Origin: a virus
Lineage: Duplodnaviria; Heunggongvirae; Uroviricota; Caudoviricetes
Strand: one strand, 5' to 3'
DNA length: 21,799 bases
Virus record (IMG/VR): IMGVR_UViG_2690316325_000016
Below the pieces are notes generated by a model that saw only the letters and a program-made list of their open reading frames with translations, made no database searches and was not told where the DNA came from. This document shows positions 1-21,799 of the stretch, piece by piece. The position numbers and the translations under genes are program-made. Position 1 is the first letter of the stretch. Every line of letters starts with the position of its first letter.

Positions 1-529
<529 letters not shown>

Positions 530-3425: not shown

Positions 3426-3545
3426 ATGTACTCCAATGAAGAAGCCACCGACATAGCCTCCTCCATTCATAGTGAAACTATTTTCATCTACCCAGTAATG
3501 AATTCTTTGTAGAGTTGTGATCAATACAACTCACTAATGGAGAGG

Positions 3546-3567
3546 CTTGTCCAACACGTTGGACAAG
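3546..3567 (+). other. Perfect 9 bp stem / 4 nt loop hairpin followed by T-rich tract (candidate terminator or packaging-region structure)
   Basis: cttgtccaa-cacg-ttggacaag then tttcctgtttgattt. Confidence 0.35.
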
Positions 3568-3647
3568 TTTCCTGTTTGATTTACTGGACACTATAGAAGG
3601 ACAGAATGCCTTCATCACTCGAATAACATCAATTAAGGAGGTTCAAC

Positions 3648-3770
3648 ATGTTTCATTCCACAAATCATCAGGCTGTAATTATGGCTGCATCAGCTTGTGC
3701 CACAGACCTTTTCCGCTTCACTTTGAGCCTGATTCATTTCTACCTGACCGGCTCGCCTCTATCTTTTTAA
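3648..3770 (+). CDS. Small ORF (40 aa) with consensus Shine-Dalgarno
   Basis: AAGGAGG at 3634-3640, 7 nt spacer, ATG 3648; translation MFHSTNHQAVIMAASACATDLFRFTLSLIHFYLTGSPLSF. Confidence 0.3.
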   Translation: MFHSTNHQAVIMAASACATDLFRFTLSLIHFYLTGSPLSF

Positions 3771-3950
3771 TCCCCGCTTTATCCAAATTGCATTGCCAGA
3801 ATGCTGACAACAGACTGACATTCAAATCCTGACTACCTCCAATAGGCTGAGCATCCACCTATATAGTTTTAATTTTCATCAATCCATTTAACTATCGTTT
3901 AATTGTTGTCACATAGGATTCTGCCGTTTTTAACAATGCAGGATAATAAG

Positions 3951-4244
3951 ATGAAAAAAATGTTGTTTTCTGCCGCTCTGGCAATGCTTATTACAGGATG
4001 TGCTCAACAGACGTTTACTGTTGGAAACAAACCGACAGCAGTAACACCAAAGGAAACCATCACCCATCATTTCTTCGTTTCGGGAATTGGACAGGAGAAA
4101 ACTGTTGATGCAGCCAAAATTTGTGGCGGCGCAGAAAATGTTGTTAAAACAGAAACCCAGCAAACATTCGTAAATGGATTTCTCGGTTTTATTACTTTAG
4201 GCATTTATACTCCACTGGAAGCGCGTGTGTATTGCTCACAATAA
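3951..4244 (+). CDS. bor: Bor outer-membrane lipoprotein (serum resistance, lysogenic conversion)
   Basis: 97 aa, signal peptide with lipobox LITGC, near-identity to recalled lambda Bor; opposite strand to late operon as in lambda. Confidence 0.9.
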   Translation: MKKMLFSAALAMLITGCAQQTFTVGNKPTAVTPKETITHHFFVSGIGQEKTVDAAKICGGAENVVKTETQQTFVNGFLGFITLGIYTPLEARVYCSQ

Positions 4245-4254
4245 TTGCATGAGT

Positions 4255-6656: not shown

Positions 6657-6992
6657 ATGAAGTGGATTGTGATTGATACAGTTATCCAGCCATCATGCGG
6701 AATATCTTTTTCAGTCATATGGAGTAAAATAAAATTAATAATCTGGTATCAATCGGATGCTTTCTTACCTCCTGAAAGTATATTTACACTGACTCACACA
6801 GGCATCATGCTCAATAACAAAGTGCTACCTGTAACCATTTACAACGTAGTACCATTCAATAAAACATTCTGGAATTTAATCAAAAACAACCAGGAATGCC
6901 CTACAAATACAGATAACGTAATGAATGAATGCTTTAATAACCGTTGCACTCTGCAAATATGTCCTTATGGACTAAAACAACAAAGTCCATAA
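6657..6992 (+). CDS. AT-rich moron protein (111 aa), antisense to late operon
   Basis: AAGGAAAG SD 6 nt before ATG; TATACT -10 at 6611-6616; 11 bp stem hairpin at ORF end; 6 of 13 Ile codons are AUA. Confidence 0.5.
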
Positions 6993-6994
6993 GG
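6963..6994 (+). terminator. Hairpin (11 bp stem, 10 nt loop) at 3' end of plus-strand moron ORF
   Basis: ccttatggact-aaaacaacaa-agtccataagg; weak U-tract. Confidence 0.35.
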
Positions 6995-7906: not shown

Positions 7907-7980
7907 CGCGCTGTACTGGATTCGAACCAGTGACCGATTGCTTAGAAGGCAATTGCTCTGTCCGGCTGAGCTAACAACGC
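7907..7980 (-). tRNA. tRNA-Arg (anticodon UCU), CCA not encoded
   Basis: Cloverleaf parsed by hand: acceptor GCGTTGT/ACAGCGC, D-arm GCTC/GAGC, anticodon loop CTTCTAA, T-arm ACTGG-TTCGAAT-CCAGT. Confidence 0.9.
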
Positions 7981-8080
7981 TGAATACCGATAATGGACCG
8001 CCATCGGGGACCCGCCCCCGCACCAACAACCCTGTTATCGTGTCGTCTGCTCTTCCTGATAAGCTAATGGCGGTTTGTGA

Positions 8081-8156
8081 TGGTGGCCCTTGCTGGATTT
8101 GAACCAGCGACCTGGCGATTATGAGTCGCTCGCTCTCACCACTGAGCTAAAGGGCC
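8081..8156 (-). tRNA. tRNA with CAU anticodon, ileX-like (tRNA-Ile2, lysidine) rather than Met; CCA encoded
   Basis: GGCCCTTTAGCTCAGTGGTGAGAGCGAGCGACTCATAATCGCCAGGTCGCTGGTTCAAATCCAGCAAGGGCCACCA; close to recalled E. coli ileX. Confidence 0.85.
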
Positions 8157-8195
8157 GGGAGCAGAATAATAACGGTCCGTAATTAATTCCGCAAT

Positions 8196-9135: not shown

Positions 9136-9498
9136 TTAATGCATTATGGGGTAAATCTTCACCCCCAGACGTCCACCAGATACTGGCTGACCACGAACGA
9201 TATTGATTTCATCAAACTGCTCATCGTCCATTAACACTCCCGCATGCGTCAGCGCATCCAGCGGTGCTTTCAGGATATTGTCCAGGTCGCGACGACGCTT
9301 ATCCGGTGGCTCTGCAATCACCTTTATCGCCAGCCTTCCGGACAGGTTTAATTTCAGCCGCTGCTGGCGAACAATTAGCGCCACATCACGGCGATAACGC
9401 TTTCCGGCCTCCGAGATGAAATACGTATTGCCATGACGTCGCCAGTAGGTATTCACCGTCGGCGGGTAAGGCAAAACAAATTCTATGCGTTCAGTCAT
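9136..9498 (-). CDS. rusA: RusA Holliday junction resolvase
   Basis: 120 aa; conserved RusA signature DKRRRDLDN and similarity to recalled DLP12 RusA. Confidence 0.9.
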   Translation of the reverse strand: MTERIEFVLPYPPTVNTYWRRHGNTYFISEAGKRYRRDVALIVRQQRLKLNLSGRLAIKVIAEPPDKRRRDLDNILKAPLDALTHAGVLMDDEQFDEINIVRGQPVSGGRLGVKIYPIMH

Positions 9499-10557
9499 TC
9501 ATGCTTTCCACTTCAGGACACCCGAATTTCTCGCGTGCATTAAAAAACGAATCAGCAACAACAGCTGGCTGCCGTGTTTTTCTTCAAAATCTTTTACCCC
9601 GGCGTGCAGTTCGTTATGACATTTACGGCACAGCGGAATAACAAACAAATCATCAGCCTTTGTTCCCATACCTCCCAGGCCATGACCAATGATGTGATGC
9701 GGATCATCTGCCTGATTACCGCACGTCATGCATTTCTGCGTTTTTACCCAGCGCGTGTATACAGGCATCTCTTCCCGTTGTGGTTTCTGGCGCTGGAGAT
9801 ACTGAGCCGGAGACTCCGGATCAACGGCGATGCTTACTAACGTCTTTTCCTGGAGTGGGGGCTGTTGCTGGTGGACGTGAAGTGGCAGCGCAATATTTTT
9901 TGTGCGCTGCTTCAGTATGCTGGTGGCAGTCTGTTCTCCCGGTACGATGTCACTCTCACGGTATACGGAGCGGATTTTTTCCACCGGTAATCCCAGTGAA
10001 CGACACAATACAGACTCCGGAAGCGCATCAGCCACCTGATTGCAGACCGCCCACCAGGATAATTCGGCCAGCGATAACTCCCTCTCCTGCGTACCGCTGA
10101 TTGCGTGACGGATGACGTCAATCATCCATGCTGACAAGTTTTGGTGAGCAAGTTGCTCAAGTGATTCTGAGGTCTGGTCACACAACTGGTTGTCGCAGTG
10201 CCAGCACAACACCATTGCGCCGGTACCATAACGGTGAATGACGGTTTCACTGTGGTGATAATCACCGTGTGGCCACTGGCAGGATTTAATATGGCGCAAC
10301 AGCCAGTCAGACAGTGCACCAGCGCCGCCAGCAGCACGAATCACACGCTCATTGCTGAAAAATGGCAGTAATGATTTATCCTCCGCCAGCGGCTGGCGAA
10401 CGGCAGGGACGACTCCGGATGGCAGGCCGCACATGCTTTTCGGTTCCGGCTCCACCAGCACTCGAGGATTATGAAATATCTGTATGGATTCACGGCCCGG
10501 CTTAAGGACCACCAGCCCAAGCTCAGGCACCAGAACAGGTCTAAGTAATACCCGCAC
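9499..10557 (-). CDS. DUF968-family protein (YdfU-like) with C-terminal HNH-like motif
   Basis: 352 aa; GTG start with GGAGGT SD 4 nt upstream; C-terminal CMTCGN...HHIIGHG...CRKCHNELH. Confidence 0.7.
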   Translation of the reverse strand: MRVLLRPVLVPELGLVVLKPGRESIQIFHNPRVLVEPEPKSMCGLPSGVVPAVRQPLAEDKSLLPFFSNERVIRAAGGAGALSDWLLRHIKSCQWPHGDYHHSETVIHRYGTGAMVLCWHCDNQLCDQTSESLEQLAHQNLSAWMIDVIRHAISGTQERELSLAELSWWAVCNQVADALPESVLCRSLGLPVEKIRSVYRESDIVPGEQTATSILKQRTKNIALPLHVHQQQPPLQEKTLVSIAVDPESPAQYLQRQKPQREEMPVYTRWVKTQKCMTCGNQADDPHHIIGHGLGGMGTKADDLFVIPLCRKCHNELHAGVKDFEEKHGSQLLLLIRFLMHARNSGVLKWKA

Positions 10558-10999: not shown

Positions 11000-11155
11000 T
11001 TACTCCTCAGGTTCGTAAGCTGTGAAGACAGCGACCTCCGTCTGGCCGGTTCGGATTCGTACCTCGCAGAGGTCTTTCCTCGTTACCAGTGCCGTCACTA
11101 TGACGGTTAAACAGATGACGATCAGGGCGATTAACATCGCCTTTTGCTGCTTCAT
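11000..11155 (-). CDS. hokD: Hok-family type I toxin (HokD/RelF-like), 51 aa
   Basis: MKQQKAMLIALIVICLTVIVTALVTRKDLCEVRIRTGQTEVAVFTAYEPEE; AAGGAG SD; overlapping short mok-like ORF 11152-11211. Confidence 0.85.
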   Translation of the reverse strand: MKQQKAMLIALIVICLTVIVTALVTRKDLCEVRIRTGQTEVAVFTAYEPEE

Positions 11156-15187: not shown

Positions 15188-15826
15188 ATGAGCAAGCAAA
15201 CTATATCTGAACGCATAACCCAACGTATGCATGCGCTAAACCTGAAAGGCAAAGACCTTGTCAATGGCACTGGCGCATCAAAAGGCTCCGTAAGTCAATG
15301 GATGAACGGTGGAGGAGCGCCGTCCTCGCGTTACATAAGTTCACTGGCAAAAATATTGAAAGTAAACGAAAATTGGCTTCTTAATGGAGGAGAGTTAAAT
15401 ACAGGTGATTCGCTTGATCTATCTTTACCGCCGATAAAAACGGTTCCGCTACTATCACTTCAGCAGGCAGCAAGCTGGAGTGATTATATGAAAAATTCCT
15501 CAATAACCTCTTGTGTGCAGCTTGTCGGAGAAATCCCGGTCAATACCTTTGCAGTTGTTCTAGAGAGTGACAGTATGTCAACATCTGGTGGGGGAGTTTC
15601 CATCCCAAATGGTTCAACAGTTTTTGTTGATCCCGATCGAACCGTACAACCAGGAAATATTGTCCTTGCCTTACCCAAAGGGACCACAACACCTGTCATT
15701 CGTAAACTGGAGATAGAAGGGCCGGATATTCTTTTAGTCCCCACGAATCCTCGCTACCCTTCAATTATGCTGGATGATCTATCTTGCATATTGGGCGTAT
15801 GCTTTAAAATTCAACAAGATATTTAA
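15188..15826 (+). CDS. CI-type prophage repressor (N-terminal HTH_XRE + C-terminal S24 LexA-like peptidase domain)
   Basis: 212 aa; HTH at N-terminus, catalytic Ser-Lys region in C-terminal half; divergent from cro. Confidence 0.85.
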   Translation: MSKQTISERITQRMHALNLKGKDLVNGTGASKGSVSQWMNGGGAPSSRYISSLAKILKVNENWLLNGGELNTGDSLDLSLPPIKTVPLLSLQQAASWSDYMKNSSITSCVQLVGEIPVNTFAVVLESDSMSTSGGGVSIPNGSTVFVDPDRTVQPGNIVLALPKGTTTPVIRKLEIEGPDILLVPTNPRYPSIMLDDLSCILGVCFKIQQDI

Positions 15827-15890: not shown

Positions 15891-15939
15891 AATGTTTTGA
15901 TAAAAAAACATTGACCTGAAAAGTTTGTTTTTCTAAACT
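15891..15939 (+). promoter_or_regulatory. PL-like promoter with overlapping operator
   Basis: Inverted repeat AATGTTTT-N6-AAAACATT (15891-15912) overlapping -35 TTGACC (15911-15916); 17 nt spacer; -10 TAAACT (15934-15939). Confidence 0.45.
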
Positions 15940-16118
15940 TCATTCATTCCCTCACCCCATCCTACAGAATGCAGGGCAATACTTCGAGTTACCAGGCAGT
16001 GGTCAGGGGTTAAGTAGCCAGCCCGAGGCGTAAGAACATGACGGCAGGGTTCAACTTTAATAACTATGCAGCAGGTTTTTGTTCCGCTACCCCGGCGTTA
16101 AGGGGAAATGAGGTCAGC

Positions 16119-16274
16119 ATGGATACTATCGATCTTGGCAACAACGAATCTCTGGTGTACGGCGTGTTTCCAAACCAGGACGGCACCTTCACCGCAATGA
16201 CGTATACAAAAAGCAAAACGTTTAAAACCGAAAATGGTGCCCGTCGCTGGCTGGAAAGAAACTCAGGTGAGTGA
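16119..16274 (+). CDS. ydfA: YdfA-like small protein (DUF1391), 51 aa
   Basis: GAGG SD; first gene of dicB-type operon. Confidence 0.75.
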   Translation: MDTIDLGNNESLVYGVFPNQDGTFTAMTYTKSKTFKTENGARRWLERNSGE

Positions 16275-16275
16275 T

Positions 16276-16404
16276 ATGGATTTTGACACAATCATGGAAA
16301 AGGCTTACGAAGAATACTTCGAAGGCCTTGCCGAAGGCGAAGAAGCTCACAGCTTCAACGAATTTAAACAGGCGCTTTCCAGTTCGGCAAAATCTAACGG
16401 CTGA
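16276..16404 (+). CDS. ydfB: YdfB-like small protein, 42 aa
   Basis: MDFDTIMEKAYEEYFEGLAEGEEAHSFNEFKQALSSSAKSNG; starts 2 nt after ydfA stop. Confidence 0.7.
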   Translation: MDFDTIMEKAYEEYFEGLAEGEEAHSFNEFKQALSSSAKSNG

Positions 16405-16433
16405 TAAGCGAAACAGCACCGCGAGGAATCAGT

Positions 16434-16652
16434 ATGCAGAAACGAGAACCCGTCATCATCGCGCCAGACTATACCGATGATGAACTTTATGAGTGGATGC
16501 GCCAGAAAATTAATGCAGCGCAGGATCTGAAATGGGCTAATGAAGCCAGGGCTAAGCAGGCTGAAAATCTGTCCGCTCTGGAGCAGGATATCACCAATCT
16601 GGAAAAAGCAGCGGCATTAAGCATTGCCAGAATGATTACATACCCGCGTTAG
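16434..16652 (+). CDS. ydfC: YdfC-like protein, 72 aa
   Basis: GAGG SD 9 nt upstream of ATG; operon position. Confidence 0.75.
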   Translation: MQKREPVIIAPDYTDDELYEWMRQKINAAQDLKWANEARAKQAENLSALEQDITNLEKAAALSIARMITYPR

Positions 16653-16992
16653 TAGCTAATCAACAAAGCTAAGGTTAGTAATTAAGGAGTTCTCCACGGG
16701 TGAGGTGGAGTGCGTGCGCCGGACACGGGTGCGCATCCGGAACTGACAGTTTACTGAAAGGATATTTCCCTGAAAAGTCAGACCATAACGCGAAAGCGCA
16801 CGGCGAGGTAGCTGGTTCATAGATAGCCTGTCGTTAAATTTTCGTCGACCGTGCGCTTCCGGTTGTGGCAACCCGCGAAATGGCGCGGCGGTAAGTATGG
16901 CGGGGTTATTCCTTCCCCGTTGAGGACACCGGGTTGTCAGGTTGACCATACGCTTAAGTGACAACCCCGCTGCAACGCCCTCTGTTATCAAT

Positions 16993-17050
16993 TTTCTGGT
17001 GACGTTTGGCGGTATCAGTTTTACTCCGTGACTGCTCTGCCGCCCTTTTT
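16993..17050 (+). ncRNA. dicF: DicF small regulatory RNA (ftsZ-targeting), processed from dicB operon transcript
   Basis: Sequence TTTCTGGTGACGTTTGGCGGTATCAGTTTTACTCCGTGACTGCTCTGCCGCCCTTTTT matches recalled DicF; terminal hairpin plus U-tract; correct spacing between ydfC and dicB. Confidence 0.8.
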
Positions 17051-17219
17051 AAAGTGAATTTTGTGATGTGGTGAATGCGGCTGAGCGCACGCGGAACAGT
17101 TAAAACCAAAAACAGTGTTATGGGTGGATTCTCTGTATCCGGCGTTAATTGTTAACTGGTTAACGTCACCTGGAGGCACCAGGCACTGCATCACAAAATT
17201 CATTGTTGAGGACGCGATA

Positions 17220-17408
17220 ATGAAAACGTTATTACCAAACGTTAATACGTCTGAAGGTTGTTTTGAAATTGGTGTCACTATCAGTAACCCAGTATTTACT
17301 GAAGATGCCATTAACAAGAGAAAACAAGAACGGGAGCTATTAAATAAAATATGCATTGTTTCAATGCTGGCTCGTTTACGTCTGATGCCAAAAGGATGTG
17401 CACAATGA
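17220..17408 (+). CDS. dicB: DicB cell-division inhibitor (MinC activator), 62 aa
   Basis: MKTLLPNVNTSEGCFEIGVTISNPVFTEDAINKRKQERELLNKICIVSMLARLRLMPKGCAQ. Confidence 0.85.
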   Translation: MKTLLPNVNTSEGCFEIGVTISNPVFTEDAINKRKQERELLNKICIVSMLARLRLMPKGCAQ

Positions 17409-17596
17409 ATTCAGCATTTGTGCTTGTTCTGACAGTTTTTCTTGTTTCCGGAGAGCCAGTTGATATTGCAGTCAGTGTTCACAGGACAATGCAGGAGTGT
17501 ATGACTGCAGCAACCGAACAGAAAATTCCCGGTAACTGTTACCCGGTCGATAAAGTTATTCACCAGGATAATATCGAAATCCCGGCAGGTCTTTAA
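17405..17596 (+). CDS. ydfD: YdfD-like small membrane protein, 63 aa
   Basis: ATGA overlap with dicB stop; hydrophobic N-terminus. Confidence 0.75.
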   Translation: MNSAFVLVLTVFLVSGEPVDIAVSVHRTMQECMTAATEQKIPGNCYPVDKVIHQDNIEIPAGL

Positions 17597-17688
17597 AACA
17601 GTTCCGTAATAAATATCCGGTTTCATTCTTATATGCCAGCAATGGCAGGGATTTGTTCATCCTTAAATCTGTCATGAGGTTAAAACAA

Positions 17689-20160
17689 ATGAGTAAAGTC
17701 TTTATTTGCGCCGCTATTCCTGACGAACTGGCAACAAGGGAAGAAGGCGCTGTGGCTGTAGCCACAGCCATTGAAGCTGGCGACGAACGCCGTGCTCGAG
17801 CAAAATTTCACTGGCAATTCCTGGAACATTATCCGGCTGCTCAGGACTGCGCTTATAAATTTATTGTCTGCGAGGATAAACCTGGCATACCCCGCCCTGC
17901 CCTCGATTCATGGGATGCTGAATATATGCAGGAAAACCGCTGGGATGAGGAGTCTGCTTCTTTTGTCCCGGTTGAGACTGAATCCGATCCGATGAACGTC
18001 ACTTTTGACAAGCTGGCCCCTGAAGTACAGAACGCTGTCATGGTTAAGTTCGACACATGTGAAAACATCACCGTTGATATGGTTATTAGCGCACAGGAAT
18101 TGTTGCAGGAAGACATGGCAACATTCGACGGACATATCGTTGAAGCGTTGATGAAAATGCCAGAAGTTAACGCCATGTATCCGGAGCTTAAGTTGCACGC
18201 CATTGGGTGGGTTAAGCATAAATGTATTCCTGGTACTAAATGGCCCGAAATTCAGGCAGAGATGCGCATCTGGAAAAAACGTCGCGAAGGTGAACGCAAG
18301 GAAACCGGAAAATACACGTCTGTTGTTGATCTCGCCCGCGCCAGAGCCAATCAACAGTACACTGAAAATTCAACAGGAAAAATCAGCCCGGTCATTGCTG
18401 CCATTCATCGCGAATACAAGCAGACATGGAAAACACTGGATGACGAACTGGCCTACGCTCTCTGGCCTAGTGATGTGGATGCCGGAAACATTGACGGCAG
18501 CATCCATCGCTGGGCAAAAAAAGAAGTTATCGACAACGACCGCGAAGACTGGAAGCGTATCTCGGCATCAATGCGCAAACAGCCTGATGCCCTTCGCTAC
18601 GACCGCCAAACTATTTTTGGCCTTGTCCGTGAGCGTCCGATCGACATTCACAAAGATCCCGTAGCACTGAACAAATATATCTGCGAATACCTGACGACAA
18701 AGGGCGTGTTTGAGAATGAAGAAACAGACCTGGGCACTGTTGATGTTCTCCAGTCATCAGAAACACAAACTGATGCAGTGGAAACTGAGGTATCTGATAT
18801 CCCAAAAAATGAAACCGCGCCGGAAGCTGAACCATCTGTAGAGCGTGAGGGGCCGTTCTATTTCCTCTTCGCAGATAAGGACGGAGAAAAATACGGTCGC
18901 GCAAACAAACTCTCTGGTCTGGATAAGGCACTGGCTGCTGGCGCCACTGAAATCACAAAAGAAGAATATTTTGCCCGAAAAAATGGCACATACACGGGCT
19001 TACCGCAAAATGTAGATACCGCTGAAGATTCAGAACAACCAGAGCCGATAAAAGTTACCGCTGACGAAGTAAACAAAATTATGCAGGCAGCCAATATCAG
19101 CCAGCCTGACGCCGATAAGTTGCTTGCTGCATCACGTGGTGAATTTGTTGAAGGGATTAGTGACCCGAATGATCCGAAATGGGTTAAGGGGCTCCAGACC
19201 CGCGATTCTGTGAACCAGAACCAGCATGAATCGGAACGGAACTACCAAAAAGCGGAACAAAACAGTCCAAATGCGTTACAAAACGAGCCAGAAACGAAAC
19301 AGCCTGAACCAGTAGCGCAACAGGAAGTGGAAAAAGTCTGCACCGCCTGCGGTCAGACCGGCGGCGGCAACTGCCCTGATTGTGGCGCGGTGATGGGCGA
19401 CGCAACATACCAAGAAACATTCGATGAAGAGTATCAGGTTGAAGTTCAGGAAGATGATCCGGAGGAAATGGAAGGCGCTGAACATCCACACAAGGAGAAC
19501 ACTGGCGGCAATCAGCATCACAATAGCGATAATGAAACTGGCGAGACGGCAGATCACCCAATTAAGGTGAACGGTCATCACGAAATCACATCCACCAGCA
19601 GGACGTGTGACCATCTAATGATCGACCTTGAAACCATGGGAAAAAATCCTGATGCCCCGATCATCTCAATAGGTGCAATATTTTTCGATCCGCAAACCGG
19701 AGATATGGGACCGGAATTTAGTAAGACTATCGATCTGGAAACTGCTGGCGGAGTCATTGATCGGGACACCATTAAATGGTGGCTTAAGCAATCACGCGAA
19801 GCGCAATCTGCCATTATGACCGATGAAATCCCGTTAGATGATGCACTGTTACAATTGCGAGAATTTATCGACGAAAACTCCGGTGAATTTTTTGTTCAGG
19901 TTTGGGGAAATGGAGCCAACTTCGACAACACGATTTTGCGCCGTTCATACGAACGGCAGGGGATCCCCTGCCCGTGGCGTTACTACAACGATCGCGATGT
20001 ACGCACAATCGTTGAGCTGGGGAAAGCCATAGACTTCGATGCCAGAACGGCTATTCCATTCGAAGGTGAGCGCCATAATGCACTTGATGACGCCCGTTAC
20101 CAGGCAAAATACGTTTCAGTTATCTGGCAAAAACTGATCCCGAGTCAGGCTGATTCTTAA
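17689..20160 (+). CDS. Large early protein: YdfE/RecE-like N-terminal and middle region, Cys4 zinc ribbon, and C-terminal DnaQ-like (DEDDh) 3'-5' exonuclease domain
   Basis: GAGG SD before ATG 17689; RecE-like segment [28 protein letters not shown]; exo motifs [25 protein letters not shown]. Confidence 0.75.
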   Translation: [823 protein letters not shown]

Positions 20161-20232: not shown

Positions 20233-20484
20233 ATGAGCGAAGTAATCATGATTGTCTCTCCCGGCAAATGGGTATCCGAAGAGCAGTTAATTGCGCTGAA
20301 AGGAATAAAAAAAGGTACGTTAAAAAAGGCCCGGGAAAAATCGTTTATGGAAGGAAGGGAATATAAGCATGTCGCTCATGACGGTATGCCATGGGATAAC
20401 AGTCCATGCTTTTACAACCTGGAAGAAATTGATCGCTGGATTGAGCGCCAGGCATCAGCGAGACCAAGACGTCATCTTACTTGA
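20233..20484 (+). CDS. Excisionase-like protein (alternative start at 20248)
   Basis: 83 aa ORF immediately upstream of integrase. Confidence 0.6.
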   Translation: MSEVIMIVSPGKWVSEEQLIALKGIKKGTLKKAREKSFMEGREYKHVAHDGMPWDNSPCFYNLEEIDRWIERQASARPRRHLT

Positions 20485-20518: not shown

Positions 20519-21799
20519 ATGAAATATCCGACAGGCGTGGAAAACCATGGAGGGAAATTACGTATCTGGTTTGTTTATAAAGACGTAAGAGTCAGGGAAA
20601 ATCTGGGGGTTCCTGACACAGCAAAAAACAGGCGCGTTGCAGGTGAACTACGCTCCTCTGTTTGTTACGCAATAAAAACTGGTGTTTTCGACTATGCAAA
20701 ACAGTTTCCCTCCTCACGCAATCTGGAAAAATTTGGTGAGGCCCGACAAGATTTAACCATAAAAGAACTGGCTGAAAAATTTCTGGCACTGAAAGAAACT
20801 GAAGTCGCCAAAACATCACTCAACACATACCGTGCCGTCATCAAAAATATCCTGAGCATAATCGGTGAAAAAAATCTTGCCTCATCGATTAATAAAGAAA
20901 AATTACTGGAGGTTCGTAAAGAGTTACTGACTGGATACCAGATCCCCAAAAGTAACTATATTGTTACACAACCAGGGAGATCGGCTGTAACTGTAAATAA
21001 TTACATGACAAATCTTAACGCCGTGTTCCAGTTTGGTGTTGATAACGGTTACCTGGCAGATAATCCGTTTAAGGGGATCTCGCCATTAAAGGAATCAAGA
21101 ACCATTCCGGATCCTCTTTCGCGGGAAGAATTTATCCGTCTTATCGATGCGTGCAGAAATCAGCAAGCAAAAAATTTATGGTGTGTTTCTGTTTATACTG
21201 GAGTTCGCCCTGGTGAGCTGTGTGCACTTGGATGGGAGGACATAGATCTGAAAAATGGAACAATGATGATCAGGAGAAATTTAGCAAAAGACCGTTTCAC
21301 GGTACCAAAAACACAGGCGGGAACCAATCGGGTCATTCATCTTATTAAGCCAGCAATCGACGCTCTCCGGAGTCAGATGACATTAACGAGACTGAGCAAA
21401 GAGCATATCATTGATGTTCACCTCAGAGAGTATGGCAGAACAGAAAAACAAAAATGCACCTTTGTTTTTCAACCTGAAGTGTCAGCGAGAGTAAAAAATT
21501 ATGGTGACCATTTTACCGTTGACTCAATAAGGCAGATGTGGGACGCAGCGATAAAACGTGCCGGACTCCGCCATCGAAAATCATATCAGTCGAGACATAC
21601 TTATGCCTGCTGGTCGCTGACAGCTGGTGCTAACCCGGCATTTATAGCAAACCAGATGGGCCATGCAGATGCGCAAATGGTATTTCAGGTATACGGAAAA
21701 TGGATGTCTGAAAACAATAATGCACAGGTAGCTTTGTTAAATACACAGTTAAGCGAGTTTGCCCCAACCATGCCCCATAACGAAGCAATGAAAAATTAA
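20519..21799 (+). CDS. Tyrosine-type site-specific integrase (lambda Int family); stop codon is the last 3 nt of the window
   Basis: 426 aa from ATG 20519 (GAGAGAAG SD); C-terminal catalytic region with R...HxxR...Y (HTYACW...VYGKW). Confidence 0.9.
   Translation: MKYPTGVENHGGKLRIWFVYKDVRVRENLGVPDTAKNRRVAGELRSSVCYAIKTGVFDYAKQFPSSRNLEKFGEARQDLTIKELAEKFLALKETEVAKTSLNTYRAVIKNILSIIGEKNLASSINKEKLLEVRKELLTGYQIPKSNYIVTQPGRSAVTVNNYMTNLNAVFQFGVDNGYLADNPFKGISPLKESRTIPDPLSREEFIRLIDACRNQQAKNLWCVSVYTGVRPGELCALGWEDIDLKNGTMMIRRNLAKDRFTVPKTQAGTNRVIHLIKPAIDALRSQMTLTRLSKEHIIDVHLREYGRTEKQKCTFVFQPEVSARVKNYGDHFTVDSIRQMWDAAIKRAGLRHRKSYQSRHTYACWSLTAGANPAFIANQMGHADAQMVFQVYGKWMSENNNAQVALLNTQLSEFAPTMPHNEAMKN

Follow-up and report, generated by a model that had tools for sequence, protein, structure and literature searches.

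Positions 17689-20160 of the virus record IMGVR_UViG_2690316325_000016 raise the question of what a protein related to the Rac prophage exonuclease RecE does when it ends in a DnaQ-type (DEDDh) 3′-5′ exonuclease domain and is encoded without an annealase partner. The window, by which we mean the whole stretch of 21,799 nucleotides (nt) that was analysed, covers the early region of a lambdoid prophage and some of its late region. This combination had been pointed out in the initial annotation; the observation is correct for this gene, and the statistics leave no room for chance. Our analysis shows a protein built as beads on a string, in which folded modules are joined by disordered acidic linkers and followed by a terminal DEDDh exonuclease of the DexA/Rv2179c type.

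In the list of open reading frames (ORFs), the frame spans 17653-20160 (+) without choice of start. The start is ATG 17689, 9 nt past a GAGG ribosome-binding site (RBS; 17676-17679), and the same start was chosen by the Prokaryotic Genome Annotation Pipeline (PGAP) in Escherichia coli EC32, whose chromosome is 100% identical to window positions 74-21799. As for window positions 1-73, which lie inside the portal gene, the EC32 match begins at position 74 and another genome matches from position 1. In K-12 the counterpart is the pseudogene ydfE, cut by IS2E. Because its 256 intact residues are 99% identical to amino acids (aa) 1-256 of the window protein and the gene order matches, the window gene is identified as the intact allele of ydfE. 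Databases already list the architecture: PHROG 2082 ('exonuclease', 823 positions) aligns with the protein end to end, clusters 86-100% identical to it bear precomputed Pfam PF27430 YdfE_N and PF27432 YdfE_C in addition to the Rv2179c-like domain, and PGAP names the window-identical coding sequence (CDS) 'exonuclease'. The gene and its parts are as follows.

17689..20160, + strand: complete CDS, 823 aa plus stop (ORF list; RBS; 100% identical EC32 CDS).
17689..18468, + strand: YdfE_N module (aa 1-260), unrelated by homology to the RecE N-terminus; aa 1-205 are confidently predicted as an alpha/beta fold.
18472..19569, + strand: RecE-homologous middle, aa 262-627 against RecE 278-592 (BLASTP; NCBIfam NF007259; AlphaFold2 (AF2) confidence; dN/dS, the ratio of nonsynonymous to synonymous substitution rates).
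19108..19191, + strand: conserved motif, aa 474-501, in common with RecE (letters read; BLASTP to RecE).
19339..19386, + strand: zinc ribbon, aa 551-566, CxxC-x7-CxxC (letters read).
19555..19556, + strand: mosaic junction, codon 623 (blastn of the window against L003, L006 and L007).
19612..20127, + strand: DEDDh 3′-5′ exonuclease domain, aa 642-813 (Pfam PF16473; PDB sequence match; catalytic columns; dN/dS).

In the AF2 model of aa 1-623, the predicted local distance difference test score (pLDDT) exceeds 90 at 1-205, 241-345 and 386-435 and falls below 50 in the linkers. Two folded units thus lie in the middle region, one a helical domain (241-345) and the other a small beta/alpha domain (386-435), together with disordered acidic linkers.

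In profile searches the C-terminus comes out as a DEDDh exonuclease and not as a PD-(D/E)XK fold, in agreement with what had been proposed: PF16473 (Rv2179c-like) matches aa 642-813 with an E-value of 2.4e-67 and 226.5 bits against a cutoff of 27, covering model positions 2-177 of 177, and a weak RNase_T match falls over the same residues. The full D-E-D-H-D set is present, with D646/E648 as Exo I, D746 as Exo II and H796/D801 (Hx4D) as Exo III, and these five residues are invariant in an alignment of the window domain with five standalone enterobacterial homologues and T4-type DexA. The sole solved relatives found by sequence are PDB 8KEL/8KEN, a 227-aa exodeoxyribonuclease, which is T4 DexA (PMC12153337); in PDB sequence searches at E ≤ 0.01, only these two DexA sequences and no Rv2179c chain were recovered. 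The window pentad matches the catalytic set of DexA, in which the glutamate is E9 as counted from the alignments and is printed E12 in PMC12153337. By homology, the window protein is a PF16473 member predicted to work like an exonuclease of the DexA/Rv2179c family. Exonuclease activity is very likely, and its substrate is probably DNA.

Genuinely standalone DEDDh genes exist in prophages of Salmonella and in the E. coli phage PhiR47_1, whose copy is called 'exodeoxyribonuclease VIII'. On inspection, the 183-aa 'standalone' E. coli copies (P0176) were disrupted fused genes or artefacts of contig ends or N gaps, and they give no evidence of a natural split. In Salmonella prophages (L008:5743-6852), a DndB-like (PF14072) gene lies directly upstream of the standalone DEDDh exonuclease, followed by xis-int.

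The description of the product as a RecE-like early protein holds for the middle third of the chain. In BLASTP, aa 262-627 pair with residues 278-592 of K-12 Rac RecE (E 2e-61) and are near-identical to it from approximately aa 470 onward, and the segment likened to Rac RecE in the initial annotation is found at aa 474-501, inside this aligned stretch. The description fails for the first 260 aa, which are YdfE_N: aa 1-260 have no BLASTP similarity to Rac RecE, RecE 1-277 stays unmatched, and in the Pfam search PF06630 (N-terminal Exonuc_VIII) was not matched, YdfE_N standing in its place. The NCBIfam RecE equivalog NF007259 scores 281.6 bits against a cutoff of 1269, with aa 246-623 covering model positions 271-600 of 877. 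For the PD-(D/E)XK fold, there is no Pfam match (PF12684-type) in the window protein, and phmmer with RecE 595-866 recovered the sister alleles described below and not the DEDDh-type proteins. On the score, nuclease domain, N-terminal domain and RecT partner, all of which were tested and none of which agrees, the window protein is to be classed outside the RecE equivalog family. The region of RecE that corresponds to the middle of the window protein is non-catalytic, with no function assigned to it, and the N-terminal region of RecE is dispensable for nuclease function and raises linear-linear recombination (PMC11611040).

The zinc ribbon noted earlier is likewise there, in the halves CTACGQ (551-556) and CPDCG (562-566). 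It is not specific to the fusion, being inherited from the RecE-type middle region: in the BLASTP alignment, Rac RecE bears the same ribbon, CNACGQTGGDNCPDCG. The ribbon is found only in a subset of relatives, and its presence is independent of the type of C-terminal domain. The core of the conserved motif, RGE[FY].xG[IV]S, recurs across many family members with differing C-termini.

The annealase partner is missing, as had been suspected from the window. A Pfam run on ten ORFs of the window, taken from the nin, replication and immunity regions and including xis, yielded DUF968/HNH, RusA, DUF977, YdaT, a cI-type repressor and an excisionase, and no RecT, Erf or Rad52 family. PGAP annotates no annealase in the whole EC32 prophage, in the complete phage PhiR42_1 or in the non-structural half of HannyBb. 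We also ran tblastn (E ≤ 1e-3) with RecT, lambda Bet, P22 Erf, ul36 Sak, a Rad52-like domain, lambda Exo and Gam as queries against the window, L001, L002, L004, L008, L019 and 80 IMG/VR loci, 1.09 Mb in total. No annealase match was obtained over these related loci, Sak4 and Gp2.5-type proteins having no dedicated queries, and homologues of lambda Exo, Bet and Gam were not detected there either. The same tblastn search gave no annealase match in L104-L106.

The origin of the fusion is apparent from its relatives. A search with aa 1-640 returned sister proteins of 900 aa whose front end is 96-97% identical and which bear PF12684 (DUF3799, PD-(D/E)XK) in place of PF16473, in addition to YdfE_N and YdfE_C. 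The sister genes come after dicB-ydfD, are followed by RecT, Lar, DUF1187, xis and int, and lie at the Rac (ttcA) site; in every PD-(D/E)XK allele examined, RecT is next downstream. In blastn, the similarity of the window to Rac recE and to the PD-(D/E)XK plus RecT alleles stops in all cases at base 19555, in codon 623, and returns past that base only weakly inside int. These alignments show that the architecture goes back to an exchange of cassettes and not to a one-off fusion, with a sharp boundary at codon 623 in the disordered linker ahead of the nuclease. As to the origin of the linker at aa 624-640, no DNA similarity was detectable in the 5′ untranslated region of a standalone gene.

HMMER with aa 1-623 over 1.84 billion representative proteins gave 244 clusters at E ≤ 1e-3. 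Because there are just 244 clusters in so large a collection, the family is narrow. Local domain mapping showed two alternative N-modules, YdfE_N or RecE_N (PF06630), on a common middle region; among the 80 IMG/VR loci, 60 are of the YdfE_N type and 18 of the RecE_N type. Behind these front ends, the C-terminal domain is of the DEDDh type (for example, P0010, P0249, P0260, P0262 and P0360), of the PD-(D/E)XK type (many clusters), of the RecT type (P0320), without a Pfam match (13 clusters) or a further tail (P0246 and P0253). The RecE_N plus DEDDh form (P0249) lies directly before xis-int and has no RecT. In-frame fusions of the front end to a Rad52-like annealase or to RecT also exist. In P0320 (703 aa), RecE_N (PF06630), the middle motif and a RecT domain (PF03837, E 1.2e-42) form a single chain, from which the RecE nuclease domain appears to have been deleted. 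Our literature searches found no paper describing such a combinatorial exchange of C-terminal enzymes. The fourth-type tail of P0246 (702 aa) and P0253 (683 aa) comprises the C-terminal 60-240 aa, ...LTIAALHGLCANPA..., after the same front ends; its sole match is PHROG 26058, to which no function is assigned.

The protein is not rare. Full-length copies are present in 3537 of the 5426 complete E. coli genomes; the DEDDh cassette is present in 4069/5426, compared with 1736/5426 for the Rac-type RecE nuclease domain, and the DEDDh architecture is thus commoner in E. coli than canonical RecE. Related copies number a median of 2 and up to 10 per genome. The gene is also intact in phage records, being 100% identical in PhiR42_1, 99.7% in HannyBb, within 99-100% in Tritos and 92% in mEp460. 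We calculated dN/dS between the window gene and that of phage Evi (87% nucleotide identity) and obtained 0.09 for YdfE_N, 0.14 for the helical domain, 0.07 for the small beta/alpha domain, 0.14 for the zinc ribbon and 0.15 for the DEDDh domain, against 0.75 and 0.88 for the two acidic linkers. All folded modules are under purifying selection, and the linkers evolve near-neutrally.

In EC32 the prophage occupies the Qin site, between rspB and a truncated ydfJ, and the order on the + strand is cI-like repressor, ydfA, ydfB, ydfC, DicF RNA, dicB, ydfD, exonuclease gene, xis and int. The neighbouring features are as follows.

15911..17596, + strand: upstream part of the early-left (dicBF-type) operon (PGAP of identical DNA; Rfam; promoter scan).
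15911-15939, + strand: promoter-like site downstream of the repressor gene (promoter scan).
16994-17045, + strand: DicF small RNA, full length, between ydfC and dicB (Rfam RF00039, 76.7 bits).
17220-17408, + strand: dicB (PGAP annotation of identical DNA).
17405-17596, + strand: ydfD (PGAP annotation of identical DNA).
20233-20484, + strand: excisionase, DUF1233 (ORF list, PGAP, Pfam).
20519-21799, + strand: integrase (ORF list, PGAP).

Because a full-length DicF lies between ydfC and dicB, the window holds a complete dicBF-type operon. The promoter scan, in which overall counts were below the shuffled expectation, gave no promoter-like site directly upstream of the exonuclease gene, which is most likely the last gene of a repressor-controlled dicBF (PL-type) early-left operon in a Qin-like lambdoid prophage. 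Because the PL-like dicBF promoter of K-12 is repressed by DicA and the operon mRNA is undetectable from the native locus (PMC6832061), the gene is likely to be expressed only after derepression. The order exonuclease-xis-int recurs in L001, L008-L011, L019 and L106, and this unit behaves as one module.

For the repressor itself, the PGAP call is a 113-aa 'LexA family protein' at window positions 15488-15826. The ORF from ATG 15188 (15188-15826, +) encodes 212 aa with HTH_3 and then Peptidase_S24; the PGAP start is probably too far downstream, and the 212-aa form fits a cI-type SOS-cleavable repressor. Elsewhere in the window, a 352-aa DUF968 protein (9499-10557, −) adjoining RusA (9136-9498, −) has a weak HNHc_6 match (E 1.2e-7) and may be a second nuclease of the nin region. 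PGAP on EC32 lists iss (a lipoprotein of serum survival), iraM (an anti-adaptor), tRNA-Arg, tRNA-Ile and the toxin gene hokD as prophage cargo, at window positions 3952-4245, 6658-6993, 7908-7981, 8082-8157 and 11000-11155, respectively.

The reading that we favour, which taken as a whole we consider a little better than even, is that of an annealase-independent 3′-5′ DNA-end exonuclease that is expressed from the repressed dicBF operon and trims or degrades ends. Derepression would turn on the operon including the exonuclease gene, the front end would guide the enzyme to whatever DNA-associated target it serves in RecE, and the DEDDh domain would strip nucleotides from free 3′-OH ends by two-metal-ion hydrolysis, a chemistry common to DnaQ-like enzymes. 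It would act on DNA and without an annealase, with host, competitor or recombination-intermediate DNA as candidate substrates. DNA is favoured over RNA on two grounds: by sequence, the closest relative of solved structure is T4 DexA, a DNA exonuclease, and the front end is otherwise combined with DNA-recombination enzymes in every case. End trimming or degradation is favoured over annealing of the Red/RecET type because such an enzyme would leave 5′ and not 3′ tails and because no partner is encoded.

Several points weigh against this reading. The namesake of PF16473 is an exoribonuclease, which leaves RNA substrates possible. That the protein does not serve recombination is a leaning, since recombinational repair can involve a 3′-5′ exonuclease, an example being T4 DexA in intron homing. 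A weak terminator-like hairpin, with a 5-bp stem and a T-poor tail, lies at 17634-17647 (+), past ydfD and ahead of the RBS of the exonuclease gene; it may be due to chance or be an attenuator. Co-transcription with dicB is something we infer from the missing promoter, and this step itself counts on the same side. Finally, no functional study turned up in the literature, which was searched for the Rv2179c-like family, for ydfE, for RecE in connection with DEDDh and for exodeoxyribonuclease VIII in connection with DnaQ-like enzymes. The Gifsy-1 RtcR paper (PMC9879122) was considered and is unrelated to the window protein.

Among the alternatives, an exoribonuclease like Rv2179c, which would trim or degrade RNA 3′ ends at induction, with DicF, host RNA or nanoRNA as examples, is unlikely. 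The best Pfam model is named 'Rv2179c-like 3′-5′ exoribonuclease', many copies are called '3′-5′ exoribonuclease' by PGAP, and the gene shares its operon with DicF. However, the PDB sequence searches yielded the DNA exonuclease DexA alone, the front end is otherwise joined only to DNA-recombination enzymes, and standalone homologues lie beside xis-int in prophages that have no DicF.

Alternatively, the protein might be the exonuclease of a two-component recombination system that works in trans, with RecT/Bet of co-resident prophages or with host RecA/RecFOR, and processes ends or flaps. E. coli genomes with several related copies and many prophages would offer such partners, the front end is common to RecE and to annealase fusions, T4 DexA contributes to intron homing, and the full-length RecE front end enhances linear-linear recombination (PMC11611040). 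The predicted polarity, however, would destroy the 3′ tails that annealases and RecA use, and 0 of approximately 90 loci have an annealase within 10 kb, whereas RecT follows every examined PD-(D/E)XK allele. We regard this possibility as quite unlikely.

An anti-phage nuclease of the 'HREX' type would spare unmodified host DNA and degrade incoming DNA modified with 5-hydroxymethylcytosine (5hmC; T-even phages). Its model is EcD, an E. coli DexA homologue reported to cleave 5hmC DNA, not to cleave unmodified double-stranded DNA (dsDNA) at 25 °C and to protect against T4 (PMC12153337). The window domain belongs to the same DexA-related family as EcD, the neighbouring dicB gives phage resistance when expressed (PMC6832061), and the cassette is very prevalent in E. 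coli. Against this, W152 and D169 of DexA, the residues reported to read 5hmC, are matched in the alignment by Tyr and Ala, respectively, lysogens keep the operon repressed, the PADLOC match is weak and of a generic DEDDh kind, and EcD is a different sequence that, judging from its primers, starts MIDTET and ends TIPETYD. EcD (HAK9828821.1) was not among the 120 closest clusters, nor among 240 collected sequences, and its 23-nt primer core was not found in viral or genome contigs, perhaps because the gene was codon-optimised. At the column of DexA D90, a tetramer-forming Asp that is Ala in EcD, Asp718 and Ala719 adjoin in the window protein, and with 28% identity the alignment may be off by one residue there. 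An anti-phage role of this kind therefore seems improbable.

A decaying remnant, that is, an in-frame fusion without a selected function that illegitimate recombination produced by chance in a defective prophage, would be consistent with the IS2-truncated K-12 pseudogene and with the many database entries that are fragments, but it is largely refuted and highly improbable given dN/dS of 0.07-0.15 in all folded modules, conservation of the full-length ORF across some 3500-4000 complete genomes and also among phage records submitted as complete genomes, and the same fusion on two different front ends, YdfE_N and RecE_N.

Beyond the annealase-independent DNA-end exonuclease that we favour, a wider interpretation is doubtful at present: YdfE_N or RecE_N with the middle region might be a general recruitment scaffold of enterobacterial lambdoid phages that brings interchangeable DNA-end enzymes to one common target, the DEDDh form being an annealase-independent system of reverse polarity for the processing or destruction of DNA ends. 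If so, the cargo of the scaffold would comprise a 5′-3′ PD-(D/E)XK exonuclease, a 3′-5′ DEDDh exonuclease, a Rad52-type annealase and RecT. The DEDDh system would then occur in roughly three in four complete E. coli genomes, which exceeds the frequency of textbook RecET, and the part it plays in phage development, in host takeover or in competition between phages would have gone unrecognised.

The finding is sound but common, and its most interesting point is a portable front end common to nucleases of both polarities and to annealases. Ever since RecET came into use for recombineering, the large N-terminal region of RecE has lacked an assigned function (PMC11611040). Part of the non-catalytic region of RecE is a portable module that prophages combine with at least four DNA enzymes, the commonest combination in E. 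coli being a 3′-5′ DEDDh exonuclease without an annealase and not the RecE nuclease, and what the differently ended proteins have in common provides a handle on front-end function. There is also an annotation problem: copies are named 'exodeoxyribonuclease VIII', 'exonuclease' or '3′-5′ exoribonuclease', and related fusions to an annealase carry the label 'exonuclease'. Should it digest the DNA of the host or of competitors, the enzyme would matter for the biology of prophage induction and for competition between phages in the majority of E. coli strains; should it be an end-trimming accessory alone, it would be ordinary.

Among known systems, the standalone DEDDh proteins of Salmonella, Klebsiella, Citrobacter and E. 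coli prophages (for example, P0211) are 57-64% identical to the window domain and share its slot directly upstream of xis-int with no annealase nearby, but they are only 183-191 aa long and have no RecE-like or YdfE front end. T4 DexA belongs to the same DEDDh fold family with identical catalytic residues and is likewise a phage-encoded 3′-5′ DNA exonuclease that works without an annealase; it takes part in intron homing (PMC12153337). At only approximately 28% identity, it differs in being a standalone protein of 227 aa with extra loops, whereas the window protein has a 640-aa front end and carries Tyr (in RYYNDRD) and Ala in place of W152 and D169. EcD of the HREX type is also a DexA-family DEDDh exonuclease of E. 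coli, but a short standalone protein. Mycobacterium tuberculosis Rv2179c gave its name to the family model that the window domain matches over its full length, whereas Rv2179c itself is described as an exoribonuclease and is not a phage early-operon gene.

With lambda Red (Exo/Bet/Gam) and other SynExo recombinases, the window protein shares the equivalent slot in the lambdoid PL operon, but it has another nuclease fold, another predicted polarity and no annealase. From Rac RecE it differs in having neither the PD-(D/E)XK domain nor an adjacent RecT, in carrying YdfE_N instead of PF06630, and in a predicted polarity that is opposite (5′-3′ on dsDNA for RecE, 3′-5′ for the DEDDh domain). With Rac RecE it nevertheless has in common the middle region, the conserved motif, the zinc ribbon and the acidic linkers, and both genes lie in the early-left operon, a few genes from xis-int.

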